UHGV virus genome: UHGV-0098755 | DNA length: 64,000 nt | Direction: 5' to 3' (one strand) | Origin: a virus | The notes under the pieces: generated by a model | What the model was told of the DNA's origin: nothing | The model's database searches: none | The model's input: the letters and a program-made list of their open reading frames with translations, nothing else | Shown here: piece by piece, positions 55,235 to 61,720 of the stretch | How positions within the stretch are numbered: position 1 is the stretch's first letter | Layout of the letters: every line of letters starts with the position of its first letter | Program-made: the position numbers and the translations under genes

Positions 55235-55555
55235 TTATAGCGTAATCCATTCTCGTACTGTCTGAGTTACTACACGTTCTCGAAGCTCAACCAGTTCAAC
55301 AGTAGGAACTGCATAATACCAGTCAGAATGGTAAGAACCTGAGCGAGATTCATTTACGGAAACATATACGTAGTGTTTTGGGCTAAAGTAAATTACTCGA
55401 CGATATTGGCATTTGCCTTGTTGAGTCCATTCTTCGGATTCAATCTGAATAAGATAGTCGGAAAAATCGAAATCATAGTTTTCCGAAAATGCATCATGGT
55501 CTTCGATGATTTCGCTCAGAACTGCATCAACATCTAATTTATTTTCAATAGTCAT
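55235..55555 (-). CDS. Hypothetical protein (106 aa)
   Basis: ORF. Confidence 0.5.
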   Translation of the reverse strand: MTIENKLDVDAVLSEIIEDHDAFSENYDFDFSDYLIQIESEEWTQQGKCQYRRVIYFSPKHYVYVSVNESRSGSYHSDWYYAVPTVELVELRERVVTQTVREWITL

Positions 55556-56216: not shown

Positions 56217-56474
56217 TTATTCCTTAATTCCTAGTACTTGTTTAAAAGTCTCGTCGTAATCAAGACTTTGGCCCGTTTGTTCTTTATGTTTGTATATAAT
56301 ATCACTTACTTCTGATAGCATATTTTTATATGAACGAGTTAAAGCAGATTTAAGCACGCTGTATCTATCAGGAAATTTACCATGTTCATTATAATACGCT
56401 ATTGCTAATTCACGGACTGCCTTTTCAGCAGTCTCCATATATTCTTTACGCTTGGTCATTTTCTTCTCGGTCAA
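56217..56474 (-). CDS. Hypothetical protein (85 aa), nrdC.1
   Basis: ORF. Confidence 0.5.
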
Positions 56475-56760
56475 ATCGGTGTTTACAATGGCGACATTTA
56501 TAACGAAGATTACTAGTCTGCCAATGAACTAATTGTACCTGTTCAGTACCGCATTCAGGACAATTAGGAACGTTTTTAGAAGCCCTTTCGCGACGTTTAA
56601 CCATGACCATTACAGAATCCCAATTAACAGGAGGGCTATAATCATCACAACCATGAATCTTTCCACGCATTTCCAAATCGTCTTCTTCACCGGCCATAAT
56701 AATTTTAATTAAACTGGAATTACTTGAAGCTGCAATGTCTTCTAATAGACGCTTTTTCAT
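56446..56760 (-). CDS. Zinc-ribbon protein (104 aa), nrdC.2
   Basis: CPECGTE...CRHCKH. Confidence 0.5.
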
Positions 56761-57686
56761 TTCAATACCTCAATAGCATTACGTAAACCATTTGCTTTTG
56801 CATTAAGAGCTTTTAACAATTTGGTGTGTTCTGCAATTTGGGCTTCAACTTCAATCAAACGGGCATTGAGATATTCACGTTCTTCACTCAGATTATCAAC
56901 CTTTTCTGCTTTAGGTTCTTTTACAACTTGCTTATATGTATTAGGGTTCTTCAGTTTAATTAGAATGCGTGAACTGTACAGCATTGAACCATTATCTTCG
57001 GTTTCGTCATACATTTCCACTACGTCCATCATCTCCACCATCGTGCAGAGTTTATAAGACAACGAACGAATAATTTTGTTGTGCTTATTAATTTCTCTAG
57101 CTGTCATGGTGCCGAGATTACGTGAGTAATAATAAGGAACCTGGATATTAATTAATACTGATGAACCACCTGGCTTGTGTGTTACTTCATCAGCAATAAC
57201 CCAATCCTTAACATGAACTGTATTTGTACGGTCATCGCCCGCGGTAAATAGTTTACGAGCATGCTTAAAAAGCATATTCACTTGGTCATTGAATTGACAA
57301 GCGAATTTATCAGCAAATTTAGTTTCGGGAATGGTAGATAACCAATCAGCCAAATGGGTCTTTTTAACATCGTTAACAATAGTAAATTCAACCAAATCGG
57401 TTATAGATGTCTCAGATTTAATGAAGCTCGGCTTCATAAAGTTTTTAATGTTATCACTAGCTACAGTAGAAGATAACAGACGAGAACGTTTAAACCATTC
57501 AAGCAAATTACCTAACGAATGAGAATAAGCGTTTTGAGTATCTTTACAGATATGATTTTCCTGGCCAACATATTGAAGGAAATCACGAAGAATATTATTG
57601 ATTACTGCCCTGTGTCCTATCTGATAATTACGATGTTTAGTAATAAGACTGTCAAAATAATCAATATAATGTTTACGAGTTTTCAT
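56757..57686 (-). CDS. Paralogue-family protein with C-terminal coiled coil (309 aa), nrdC.3
   Basis: N-terminus MKTRKHYIDYFDSLI; heptad-like C-terminus. Confidence 0.55.
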   Translation of the reverse strand: MKTRKHYIDYFDSLITKHRNYQIGHRAVINNILRDFLQYVGQENHICKDTQNAYSHSLGNLLEWFKRSRLLSSTVASDNIKNFMKPSFIKSETSITDLVEFTIVNDVKKTHLADWLSTIPETKFADKFACQFNDQVNMLFKHARKLFTAGDDRTNTVHVKDWVIADEVTHKPGGSSVLINIQVPYYYSRNLGTMTAREINKHNKIIRSLSYKLCTMVEMMDVVEMYDETEDNGSMLYSSRILIKLKNPNTYKQVVKEPKAEKVDNLSEEREYLNARLIEVEAQIAEHTKLLKALNAKANGLRNAIEVLK

Positions 57687-57738
57687 GTTCTTCTCACTTT
57701 GTTAATGATTTATACTCCGAGCCATCCTTGGCTTTAAA

Positions 57739-58740
57739 TTACTTAATTAACTGTAAAGCTTGTTCCAGACGATCAAGACGATTAACGGATTCTTCCCAAA
57801 TCTTTTTAGCCTGCTCATATTCTTTCTGCGCTTTATTAGAAATTTCTAGAACTTCTTTATAAGCTTTTTCTAGTGCAATAACTTCTGGACGAATTTCTAC
57901 CGGTTCAGGTGAATCATCAAGATTATCCATTAGTTCCTCAAGGGTAGTTTCTTCTTTAGGAGTATTCACAACTTCATCACATTTTTGTTGGTAAATTTCT
58001 TTATCAGTCGGTGAGTACGCGCACTTTACTTCACGAAGGCTAATTACGAGTTTATATCCTTCCCAACCGCATATATTCTTAAAAGGATATGTATGAATAT
58101 TTTCTACTGTTTCCATACAAAGTAATGCGGTCTCTAATTGACGAGTTATAGTACTAGCAATTGAGAAAAATTTATTAATATTCTTTTGGTTAGTTTCTGG
58201 TGTAAAAAATCCATAATTCACAAAAATAGATACTTTATTTTTATCAAGTTCATATTCTTTTATGATAATCATATCAGAAGCCAAAGGATGAATTTGACGA
58301 TAATCGCCATAACATAATTTAGAAGCTGATTTTAGAATCTGTCCTTTGAAAAGTCTGAAATTACTAATCCAACGACGAGTAAAAATATTCTCAGGGTCTT
58401 CTTTATTATTAAGATGATAAGAATTAACATCACCAAACCAATTATATCCTACTACATCTTTGGTTCGTTTAATTTCTTTCCCAAAATTACCAAGAATATC
58501 CCGATTAACCAAATATGAAAGAAGACGAGACTCTTTAAAGGTTTTCTTGATAAGATCTTTATCTACACGGCTAGAAATTTTACGAATTTCATGAATAAAT
58601 TTAGTAGAAGAAACAATACTTGCATCAACACTATTGAGCCATTGATTGATAATAGAAAGAACGATATTTTGACCAAACATCGGTATAGCTTTATCATCAA
58701 TAACGCTATTGAATGATTTGATATATTCGTTACGAGTCAT
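57739..58740 (-). CDS. Paralogue-family protein with C-terminal coiled coil (about 333 aa from MTRNEY), nrdC.4
   Basis: SD GAGGAG before Met11; ORF track starts at 58770 inside the promoter -10. Confidence 0.55.
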   Translation of the reverse strand: MTRNEYIKSFNSVIDDKAIPMFGQNIVLSIINQWLNSVDASIVSSTKFIHEIRKISSRVDKDLIKKTFKESRLLSYLVNRDILGNFGKEIKRTKDVVGYNWFGDVNSYHLNNKEDPENIFTRRWISNFRLFKGQILKSASKLCYGDYRQIHPLASDMIIIKEYELDKNKVSIFVNYGFFTPETNQKNINKFFSIASTITRQLETALLCMETVENIHTYPFKNICGWEGYKLVISLREVKCAYSPTDKEIYQQKCDEVVNTPKEETTLEELMDNLDDSPEPVEIRPEVIALEKAYKEVLEISNKAQKEYEQAKKIWEESVNRLDRLEQALQLIK

Positions 58741-58797
58741 ATTAATCTCCTCAGTAGAAAGTAAGAACATTATACCACATCCTTGTGACGAAGTAAA

Positions 58798-59823
58798 CTA
58801 GTTTAGTGCATTTAGTGCATTGTTCAGTTTAGAACGCTGCTTTGTCAGATTTTGAACCCTTGACTGAGCTTGTTCTAACACCTTTTCAGCTTCTAGCACT
58901 TCATTGGTCGCTTTAACGAGTTCATCATCTACTGCCTTAAGAGACTTCTCAATCGCGTCAGCGTGCCATTTTTCAACAGGTTTAAGACTCGGATTTTCAA
59001 TAGGAAGAAAATTCACTTTATTGAATTTCCATGCATCCTTATTACCTGAACTATACATCCAAAATTTAGGATCGTTTGATAAGTAATTGGATAAATTTAA
59101 ATTTAAGTTATCTTGTACTTCTTGCTTTTTCTCTTGTGTAACTTCGTCCTTTCTCAAAAAATCATATTTAAATGAAACGATCATATCAAGTTCATATGTT
59201 GTCGTATCTAACTTAAATCGTTCAAAACGAGGTAAAATCTTAGATTGAACAGCAGAAACAACATCCATATACTTAAATGCTTCTGTCAACTGTGATTTAA
59301 GGCATTCACAAATTGAAAGAGAATTTTTAGTATTAGGCTTAAAGCTAATTCGTGCAGTTCTATTATTTTCTTTTAATGGTCTTACTTCCATTTGAAGAGT
59401 ATAACCATCAAATTTCAGATTCTTTAAGTTAATATCAGAACCTTTTAATCGACTAGCAGTAGACAAAATTTGTTTTAATTGTCTACGGAACAGAGCAATA
59501 AATCTCCATTCAAGACGATAATGATTTGGATTAAAAAATCCTGTTGATAAATCGACCTTACTTTGACCAACGCCTTGAACAAATAGAGGATTTTTATAAT
59601 CAACAGTTTTACAGAAATCGGTGAGCTGCTCACGAGCAGTCATTTGAGTAATATACCCCGCTTTACTAAAATGACGTAACCATTCACTGCTATTCATATA
59701 CTTAAAGTGAATATCACGATTAACTTTATCAGGGTCTAAATTATTTTGGCACAAAAATGTCATAACATCACGAGTATAACTGGCATTACGAACCATATCT
59801 TCAATTTGAGAACGAGTTTTCAT
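58798..59823 (-). CDS. Paralogue-family protein with C-terminal coiled coil (341 aa), nrdC.5
   Basis: N-terminus MKTRSQIEDMV. Confidence 0.55.
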   Translation of the reverse strand: MKTRSQIEDMVRNASYTRDVMTFLCQNNLDPDKVNRDIHFKYMNSSEWLRHFSKAGYITQMTAREQLTDFCKTVDYKNPLFVQGVGQSKVDLSTGFFNPNHYRLEWRFIALFRRQLKQILSTASRLKGSDINLKNLKFDGYTLQMEVRPLKENNRTARISFKPNTKNSLSICECLKSQLTEAFKYMDVVSAVQSKILPRFERFKLDTTTYELDMIVSFKYDFLRKDEVTQEKKQEVQDNLNLNLSNYLSNDPKFWMYSSGNKDAWKFNKVNFLPIENPSLKPVEKWHADAIEKSLKAVDDELVKATNEVLEAEKVLEQAQSRVQNLTKQRSKLNNALNALN

Positions 59824-59831
59824 GGTGTTCC

Positions 59832-60743
59832 TTAAGATTTAAGTAAATCAACAATTTTAATTAATTTTTCACGCTCAGATTTAGCTTTACTACTCAATCC
59901 AGATAGTCTGAAAATTTCATCGTCATATTGTTGAATAGAAATATTCAGCTCTTCAATTTGCTTATTAAAATAATCAATTTGTTCAGAATGTTTTTCGTTA
60001 CTACGAACTGGTGCAGGTTTTGTAGGCAATTTAGTTGAACTGGATTCATCCGGGCGATAAATTAAAATACAACTTGAACCAATCGGACATTTAGCACCAG
60101 ACACATATTCTAATGTTCCAGCTTCTTTTAAAATTTCAAAAGCTAAACAGAGATGATGCCCCATATTAACATAATCTGTAGAGTGAGCTCTGACGTAATA
60201 ATCATCTCCACGAGTGCTAAATTTAAAGCATTTAAGGTCTTCTGTATTATTAGTTTTAAAAATCATTTGTTTATCTAGACCTTTAGCCAATCGAGCGCCT
60301 AATGCTAATAATCGTCGTTGATTTTCCCACAAATCTGCGATCATTTGGTCAAATGATAATTTCGGCATTAGTCGACCATAAAGGTCATATCCTTTATTAT
60401 AATTACGAAGGATTTCACTCGCGTTAATACGAGACAATGCTCCAATTTTATTAAGGGCTTTCATAATGCGATTAGATAAACCCATTCCAGACCCGTTTGT
60501 TCGCTGTAAATGTTTTTCTAATCCAAATCCAATATCAACTTTAAATTTATCTAAAATTTCAGCATGAACATCTCTGTCAATAACATTCAAATCCAAAGTT
60601 GGGTTAAATCTATGAAAAAATTTATCTGGCTCTCCACGACGAAGTACAGTCCATTCATTCATCATTTTTTTATTAACTAAAGATTTAATTACTGCATTGA
60701 CATTATTAATTACTACTGACATATTTTCCTCACTCAATTTCAA
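59832..60743 (-). CDS. Protein with C-terminal coiled coil (303 aa), nrdC.6
   Basis: ORF; coiled-coil tail. Confidence 0.5.
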   Translation of the reverse strand: MKLSEENMSVVINNVNAVIKSLVNKKMMNEWTVLRRGEPDKFFHRFNPTLDLNVIDRDVHAEILDKFKVDIGFGLEKHLQRTNGSGMGLSNRIMKALNKIGALSRINASEILRNYNKGYDLYGRLMPKLSFDQMIADLWENQRRLLALGARLAKGLDKQMIFKTNNTEDLKCFKFSTRGDDYYVRAHSTDYVNMGHHLCLAFEILKEAGTLEYVSGAKCPIGSSCILIYRPDESSSTKLPTKPAPVRSNEKHSEQIDYFNKQIEELNISIQQYDDEIFRLSGLSSKAKSEREKLIKIVDLLKS

Positions 60744-61192: not shown

Positions 61193-61720
61193 TTATGCGA
61201 GTACCGTCTTTAACCGTTCTTCAAACTTCCGAAGAGTATTTTGGCGTTCAGCTCTTTGCTTTTTGTAAGTTTCAATACGCTCTGAAATGAGAGTGTATCG
61301 TTCATTTACTGATTCTTTCATAAAATCAGGAATTTCACGAGAAGCTTTAATCTCGTCAAATTTATCAATAACAGCTTGCTCTTCAGCAATTAAGTTATCA
61401 TACATCAAAATATCTTTCTTGATGAACTCAATATCTTCTTGAGTTACACGAGATAATTTAGATGCTTTATCCTTTTTGTACTGTTCGTTAGTATCACGAG
61501 ACCAGTGTAATGTACGATTTTTATTCGTATTCTTGTAAATTTCTACAATACCAATCTCATCAATAATAACGATCCAATTCCAGCGGGATTTGTAAATTTG
61601 TCCTCCATCAACAGTGATTTCACCTCCGATTGAGATGTCGTTAAAGAACTTGCTTTGTGCTTCAGATTTAAATTTACCATCGTTGTAATTTACCAAGTTG
61701 AAAATATCTTTAGCGTTCAT
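61193..61720 (-). CDS. Hypothetical protein (175 aa), nrdC.8
   Basis: ORF preceded by promoter repeat at 61731-61790. Confidence 0.5.
   Translation of the reverse strand: MNAKDIFNLVNYNDGKFKSEAQSKFFNDISIGGEITVDGGQIYKSRWNWIVIIDEIGIVEIYKNTNKNRTLHWSRDTNEQYKKDKASKLSRVTQEDIEFIKKDILMYDNLIAEEQAVIDKFDEIKASREIPDFMKESVNERYTLISERIETYKKQRAERQNTLRKFEERLKTVLA

Follow-up and report, generated by a model that had tools for sequence, protein, structure and literature searches.

The closest described counterparts of the locus considered here, the nrdC.3–nrdC.6 array of the UHGV virus genome UHGV-0098755, are phage proteins that act against SIR2-domain defence systems. According to Srikant et al. (eLife 2022, PMC9391042), neither ECOR17 nor MG1655 with dsr1 supports plating of a T4 deletion mutant, and plasmid-expressed T4 nrdC.5 restores plating of the deletion mutant on dsr1 cells. 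Dsr1 is a SIR2-domain NADase, the sensor of which recognises the phage major capsid protein (PMC13581612). The other case is DSAD1 of phage SPbeta, which is reported to inhibit the NADase DSR2, a SIR2-domain NAD-depleting defence triggered by a phage structural protein.

The array was analysed within a stretch of 64,000 nucleotides (nt) of the genome (the window). Its four genes are those of a Tequatrovirus. The family is real and in part already known; what is new is that known genes are grouped around a counter-defence protein that had itself been described, and the array does not amount to a new kind of system. The products of nrdC.3, nrdC.4, nrdC.5 and nrdC.6 are very probably paralogues that belong to one superfamily. 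The interpretation that we favour, and hold to be reasonably probable, is that these four ancient paralogues in tandem are protein-binding inhibitors of host immune sensors.

Probable homology among the four array proteins

An earlier note on this DNA (hereafter, the original prediction) had placed four tandem genes for proteins of 300–340 amino acids (aa) at positions 56757–60743, where the T4 map has an uncharacterised nrdC.3–nrdC.6 block. The genes were borne out by the open reading frames (ORFs), with lengths of 309, 333, 341 and 296 aa after two start corrections, and their position was borne out by the RB14 annotation and a tblastn search against T4, from which the block was named. "Uncharacterised" does not wholly apply, as T4 nrdC.5 is the published anti-Dsr1 gene. 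The proteins are 60% (nrdC.3), 98% (nrdC.4), 95% (nrdC.5) and 97% (nrdC.6) identical to those of T4 (tblastn). The genes are as follows:

56757–57686, minus strand: nrdC.3, 309 aa; Pfam Phage_T4_Y04OP / phrog_1435; RB14-type allele
57739–58740, minus strand: nrdC.4, 333 aa, start revised from 58770; Pfam PF26897 Phage_T4_Y04OP / phrog_1435
58798–59823, minus strand: nrdC.5, 341 aa; Pfam DUF7235 (PF23882) / phrog_2351
59832–60722, minus strand: nrdC.6, 296 aa, start revised from TTG 60743; Pfam PF26899 Phage_T4_Y05B / phrog_2257

Matches to phrog_1435 have E-values of 9e-116 for nrdC.3 and 4e-168 for nrdC.4, all homologues of the latter carrying PF26897. The nrdC.5 protein matches PF23882 over residues 1–341 (404 bits at a cut-off of 30; E-value, 6e-121) and phrog_2351 (E-value, 2e-170), and nrdC.6 matches phrog_2257 (E-value, 8e-151), with PF26899 present in all of its homologues.

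Pairwise and hidden Markov model (HMM) comparisons linked nrdC.3 to nrdC.4 and nrdC.4 to nrdC.5, and nrdC.6 just to a merged profile of the other three. BLASTP aligned nrdC.3 and nrdC.4 with 26% identity across 226 aa (E-value, 8e-8), and hhalign (98%; E-value, 1e-14) placed the beginning of the alignment at residues 2 and 1, respectively; judging from these alignments, the two are plainly homologues. For nrdC.4 and nrdC.5 (~23% identity), hhalign gave 74% with the first alignments and 92% (E-value, 5e-7; 247 collinear columns) after orthologues from other genera were added. This match persists when the C-terminal helices are removed (82%), and is therefore not a coiled-coil artefact. The nrdC.6 protein matched the merged nrdC.3/nrdC.4/nrdC.5 profile at residues 47–154, all in the protein body (71%; E-value, 3.6e-5; ~17% identity). 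Two motifs recognised by eye are common to all four proteins: a helix ending [AS]-[RK]-[KL]-L-x-x-G-x-D, and L-x-x-[AI]-[ILV]-x-[VLA]-[LI]-[KN] at the C-terminus.

It is mainly through predicted structure that nrdC.6 appears to be tied to the others. AlphaFold2 (AF2) monomer models were considered for nrdC.4 (predicted local distance difference test, pLDDT, 83) and nrdC.6 (pLDDT, 78), the nrdC.3 and nrdC.5 proteins being assumed alike by homology. The order of elements is the same in both models: a helical N-terminal region, a helix pair, a beta hairpin, a long helix, a beta hairpin, a low-confidence linker and a long C-terminal helix. In Foldseek searches, the nrdC.4 model matched nrdC.6 of JS10 in BFVD (E-value, 3e-5), and both models matched the same seven uncharacterised proteins of ~300–335 aa (E-values, 1e-4 to 1e-8) from Enterobacter, Pectobacterium, Acinetobacter, Klebsiella and Yersinia phages. 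The Foldseek hits of the two models were reciprocal as well as shared. For nrdC.4 and nrdC.6, structure prediction, which had been proposed as a check of the family, is in line with it with respect to both element order and Foldseek links.

The sequence comparisons also hold points that weigh against a single family. On a shallow alignment of 14 sequences, the nrdC.4–nrdC.5 comparison reached only 42% in hhalign (E-value, 2.6e-4), and profile–profile comparisons of nrdC.6 with each single family were not significant (one hhalign run gave 1.5%, E-value 0.03; local pairwise runs were likewise non-significant). In BLASTP among the four, nrdC.3–nrdC.4 was the only significant pair, comparisons limited to the C-terminal helices were not significant, and Pfam holds the four proteins as three unlinked families (Phage_T4_Y04OP, DUF7235 and Phage_T4_Y05B). 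These results could be read to mean that the four genes are not one family, and that nrdC.6, perhaps also nrdC.5, is merely alike in size, helical composition and coiled-coil tail. We regard this as improbable, however, in view of the nrdC.4–nrdC.5 match, which survives without the C-terminal helix and strengthens with deeper alignments, the element order and significant Foldseek partners shared by the nrdC.6 and nrdC.4 models, the location of the nrdC.6 merged-profile match wholly within the body, and the adjacency and gene order kept in each lineage examined.

A 315-aa relative, P0234, was considered as a bridge between nrdC.4 and nrdC.5 and rejected, since the nrdC.4 profile matches its body whereas the match to the nrdC.5 profile is confined to its C-terminal helix, a pattern that indicates a mosaic or shared tail and not body homology. 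The exchange of tail helices between paralogues is suggested by this protein.

Distribution and sequence variation

The 3,987-bp block matched 653 phage records, nearly all of them Tequatrovirus, with a top identity of 97.7% (95.3% for RB14). The order nrdC.6, nrdC.5, (nrdC.4), (nrdC.3) is conserved in Tevenvirinae, except that some lineages have lost nrdC.4 or nrdC.3: all four genes are present in Tequatrovirus, nrdC.6, nrdC.5 and nrdC.3 in Mosigvirus-like loci (L004 and L005), and nrdC.6, nrdC.5 and nrdC.4 in the remaining Tevenvirinae loci examined (L019–L027) as well as in a metagenomic contig (L028). Because the array and its order are common to several genera, where each paralogue has orthologues, the duplications are older than the genera and not recent. 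The locally duplicated family of the original prediction extends to all four genes, but its duplications are ancient, with identities of only ~17–26%.

Structural relatives were found across Straboviridae, and as far as these searches show, the superfamily is confined to phages of this family. When the nrdC.3/nrdC.4 alignment was run as a profile against 1.84 billion representative proteins, only 10 matches were returned, all from the same family, and none was a bridge to any known family; the family occupies very little of sequence space. No additional family members were found elsewhere in the 64-kb window.

Two rearranged members were seen. Protein P0120 is an nrdC.5::nrdC.3 hybrid in which residues 145–273 of nrdC.5 are followed by the C-terminal portion of nrdC.3, starting at about residue 133, and nrdC.4 is deleted; blastp aligns it with nrdC.3 residues 61–309, and the two parts meet at a short FN-x-x-VN motif that they share. 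Protein P0122, from Shigella phage Sf25, is an nrdC.6 in which an internal stretch of 82 residues is duplicated in tandem.

The ratio of nonsynonymous to synonymous substitutions (dN/dS) was estimated by the Nei–Gojobori method for 11–13 Tequatrovirus loci, a crude test:

nrdC.3: dN/dS 0.30
nrdC.4: dN/dS 0.20
nrdC.5: dN/dS 0.18
nrdC.6: dN/dS 0.10
gp49, nrdC, nrdC.1, nrdC.8–10: dN/dS 0.02–0.06

The values of the array are 2–10 fold above those of the housekeeping neighbours, yet below 1. The corresponding polymorphism ratio (pN/pS), calculated in sliding windows of 30 codons, exceeded 1 in none of the windows in the four genes. Positive selection, which would have fitted the diversifying function suggested in the original prediction, was thus not shown: dN/dS values of 0.10–0.30 indicate purifying selection. 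Variability is concentrated in patches at about residues 16–60 and 150–280, and hardly any is seen in the central and C-terminal helices.

Within Tequatrovirus, nrdC.3 occurs as two allele classes that are 60% identical, one carried by the window, RB14 and G8, the other by T4 and T2. Conservation between the classes is limited to the first ~60 residues; the divergence of the remainder suggests that alleles were replaced or are mosaic. In the T2 record, two ORFs take the place of nrdC.4, and likewise of nrdC.6 (locus L009, 3982–4921 and 6069–6959), and nrdC.4 is also split in vB_EcoM_G8 (locus L001, 5916–6948). The split ORFs represent either natural pseudogenes or sequencing errors. The genes are accessory and dispensable in nature, being split or lost in some phages.

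Gene layout, C-terminal helices and neighbourhood

At 52–64 kb of the window, every gene is on the minus strand, and the order is that of the T4 map: nrdD, gene 49, pin, 49.1–49.3, nrdC, and then nrdC.1 to nrdC.11. The array is transcribed in the order nrdC.6, nrdC.5, nrdC.4, nrdC.3. The spacers between nrdC.7, nrdC.6 and nrdC.5 are only 7–8 nt long, and the gaps before nrdC.4 and before nrdC.3 are 52–57 nt each and contain TATAAT-like elements (consensus matches only). One of these elements belongs to a site that, in a consensus scan, resembles a T4 early promoter and overlaps a spurious upstream ATG:

58769–58797, minus strand: promoter-like site directly 5' of nrdC.4; TTTACT-17-TATAAT with extended -10 TG; consensus match only

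Before revision, the mechanically called ORFs were 57739–58770 (343 aa) for nrdC.4 and 59832–60743 (303 aa) for nrdC.6. The start of nrdC.4 is most likely ATG 58740, predicted to give a protein of 333 aa beginning MTRNEY, because a GAGGAG Shine–Dalgarno sequence is found there, ATG 58770 lies within the promoter-like TATAAT, and most homologues are 332–333 aa long. Similarly, ATG 60722 is the most likely start of nrdC.6 (296 aa), as its homologues have 296 aa and a GAGGAA Shine–Dalgarno sequence is present. The original prediction had at least three of the proteins sharing their N-termini. The starts that it quoted, MKTRKHYIDYFDSLI, MTRNEYIKSFNSVI (preceded by a 10-codon upstream extension) and MKTRSQIEDMV, were all found; the likeness is true homology for nrdC.3 and nrdC.4, from residues 2 and 1, and nrdC.3 and nrdC.5 are identical in their first 12 nt (ATGAAAACTCGT).

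The C-terminal segments, which had been described as coiled coils, are located as follows:

56760–56903, minus strand: nrdC.3 C-terminal amphipathic helical segment, about residues 262–309; placed by homology to the nrdC.4 model; low pN
57745–57888, minus strand: nrdC.4 C-terminal long helix, residues 285–332 (AF2, DSSP); strongly conserved, pN/pS 0.05–0.07
58801–58971, minus strand: nrdC.5 C-terminal heptad-like helix, about residues 285–341; best heptad score of the four
59838–59999, minus strand: nrdC.6 C-terminal helix-turn-helix, residues 242–272 and 278–295 (AF2); pN/pS 0.00–0.01

Heptad periodicity over 28 or more residues was assessed with a crude score of a/d positions against shuffled sequence. 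The score exceeded that of the shuffles in nrdC.3 (p 0.03), nrdC.6 (p 0.01) and nrdC.5, in which it was reached by 0 of 300 shuffles (p < 0.004). Taken together with the AF2 models, these scores confirm helical and amphipathic C-termini; a canonical coiled coil is only suggested. A C-terminal amphipathic helix resembling the tails of nrdC.3–6 (ending in RKFEERLKTVLA) was also noted in nrdC.8 (61193–61720, minus strand, 175 aa; dN/dS 0.05). This gene was rejected as a further family member, since HMM similarity to the four is absent.

Among the neighbours, gp49.2 (55235–55555, minus strand) has a T6 homologue that, according to PMC13096335, inhibits the OLD defence nuclease. With gp49.2, pin and nrdC.5, the stretch from pin to nrdC.6 is rich in counter-defence genes. 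The product of nrdC.2 (56446–56760, minus strand, 104 aa) has two Cys pairs (CPEC...CRHC) and is zinc-ribbon-like; among the Tequatrovirus loci, nrdC.2 is the most variable gene of the neighbourhood (57–99% aa identity; dN/dS 0.21), and its start overlaps the stop of nrdC.3 by 4 nt. In RB14 and some other phages (L010, L011 and L014), a seg-like homing endonuclease gene (720 nt) is inserted between nrdC.9 and nrdC.10; the window does not have it.

Possible function and comparison with known systems

Since the nrdC.5 protein of the window is 95% identical to that of T4 over 341 aa and its gene occupies the syntenic position, it can be predicted with good confidence to share the anti-Dsr1 function. 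The anti-defence role guessed in the original prediction is true of nrdC.5, as demonstrated by the plasmid rescue (PMC9391042); for nrdC.3, nrdC.4 and nrdC.6 we only infer it, and the same applies to direct binding to a defence protein and to oligomerisation.

A scaffold for protein-binding inhibitors is the most economical model of the array. In the modelled nrdC.4 and nrdC.6 proteins, an N-terminal helical region (variable at about residues 16–60) is followed by an alpha/beta core with the conserved 'RL-x-x-G-x-D' helix, then by a disordered linker and finally by a C-terminal amphipathic helix that is likewise conserved; nrdC.3 and nrdC.5 would have the same build. All four are accessory proteins and, judging from their position and the promoter-like sites, probably early-expressed. 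The variable surfaces may adapt each paralogue to a target of its own, or to a particular variant of a target, and the conserved C-terminal helix would serve a shared function, most likely coiled-coil oligomerisation.

Several results weigh against this model. Experimental support is limited to one of the four genes, nrdC.5; the literature search found no published mechanism for NrdC.5, and nothing on it beyond Srikant et al. (2022). Scans of Pfam, NCBIfam and PADLOC gave no informative or enzyme-family match, and searches of the PDB by sequence yielded nothing informative, the best hits (E-value, 6e-5) being designed helical-repeat proteins. The best heptad window of nrdC.4 lies outside its C-terminal helix (p 0.06), and, with no pN/pS window above 1, the signature of an arms race was not demonstrated. 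For nrdC.3, nrdC.4 and nrdC.6, the literature search found no work at all. Sub-threshold matches to fragments of DndD, BrxC, PgrA and XerD in the Pfam, NCBIfam and PADLOC scans were rejected as compositional matches of coiled-coil type.

The array proteins might instead act in host takeover or regulation, for example by binding RNA polymerase, proteases or nucleic acid of the host, and nrdC.5 would then counter Dsr1 only incidentally. The neutral to basic isoelectric points (pI) of the proteins (6.5–9.3), the overall purifying selection and the presence in the same early region of pin, a Lon protease inhibitor according to record annotations, would fit such a role. The genes are, however, not required on laboratory hosts, natural phages have them lost or split, the sole known phenotype is specific to a defence system, and divergent alleles with patchy variability suit variable targets better than conserved host machinery. 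We therefore consider a takeover function rather unlikely. The same pI range rules out an acidic DNA mimic of the Ocr type.

Another explanation, which we find quite unlikely, is that the proteins are early decoys derived from a structural protein, with an exapted tail-terminator-like core, which occupy shape-recognising sensors (Dsr1, Avs-type) without activating them. Bacteria do have sensors that read the shape of tail terminators and capsid proteins, and the sensor of Dsr1 is of this kind (PMC13581612); in BFVD, tail terminator and tail completion proteins were also matched weakly by Foldseek. Nevertheless, the trigger of Dsr1 is the major capsid protein and not the tail terminator, a match to the HK97 fold was not seen, sequence similarity to structural proteins is absent, and a decoy bound to the sensor would be expected to activate it. 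Still less probable is an elaborate form of this idea, in which early immune-sensor blockers built on an exapted tail-terminator-like fold, one receptor per paralogue, would form homo- or hetero-oligomers through the C-terminal helix and occupy the receptors before the late structural proteins appear.

In many GenBank records, nrdC.3 to nrdC.7 are labelled 'thioredoxin', and odder labels of neighbours, 'tail sheath protein' and 'integrase/recombinase', are found in the T2 record. Thioredoxin-family profiles of Pfam and NCBIfam did not match any of the four proteins (CxxC motifs were not searched), and by informal comparison, the nrdC.4 and nrdC.6 AF2 models are far richer in secondary-structure elements than one small redox domain. 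Given that no thioredoxin-family profile matches, the label appears to have been propagated from the gene name nrdC.x, and the result flags a widespread misannotation in T4-like genomes.

If nrdC.3, nrdC.4 and nrdC.6 are indeed paralogues of nrdC.5, they become three named anti-defence candidates, and the array represents a natural experiment in the retargeting of one inhibitor scaffold. The contrast between variable patches, located in the N-terminal region and the core, and two invariant elements, the core helix and the C-terminal one, hints at where specificity may lie. The result also argues for joining the three Pfam families.

With respect to known systems, T4 NrdC.5 (DUF7235) is the counterpart of the window nrdC.5 in the strict sense: the latter is its orthologue, with 95% identity, a full-length PF23882 match and the same genomic position. 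The nrdC.3, nrdC.4 and nrdC.6 proteins would be its paralogues by homology, with ~17–26% mutual identity in the aligned regions and assignment to other Pfam families. DSAD1 is the closest mechanistic analogue of NrdC.5 and the best template for its possible mode of action, by analogy and not by homology, the likeness being limited to that inferred mode; DSAD1 differs in that it is an apparently unrelated protein of a Bacillus phage and its target, DSR2, has a sensor unlike that of Dsr1. The likeness to tail terminator and tail completion proteins (lambda gpU-like fold) is limited to low Foldseek scores, and sequence similarity is absent. Compared with gpU-like proteins, the nrdC proteins have an extra N-terminal helical region and a C-terminal helix, and their genes lie in an early accessory region and not in a late tail module. 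Finally, as described in the literature, tifA, dmd, adfA, ipI–III and gp49.2 of T-even phages are likewise small to medium-sized, non-essential and variable genes of hyperplastic regions, each neutralising one defence; they are individual genes, whereas the nrdC array comprises three to four paralogues in an order conserved across genera.

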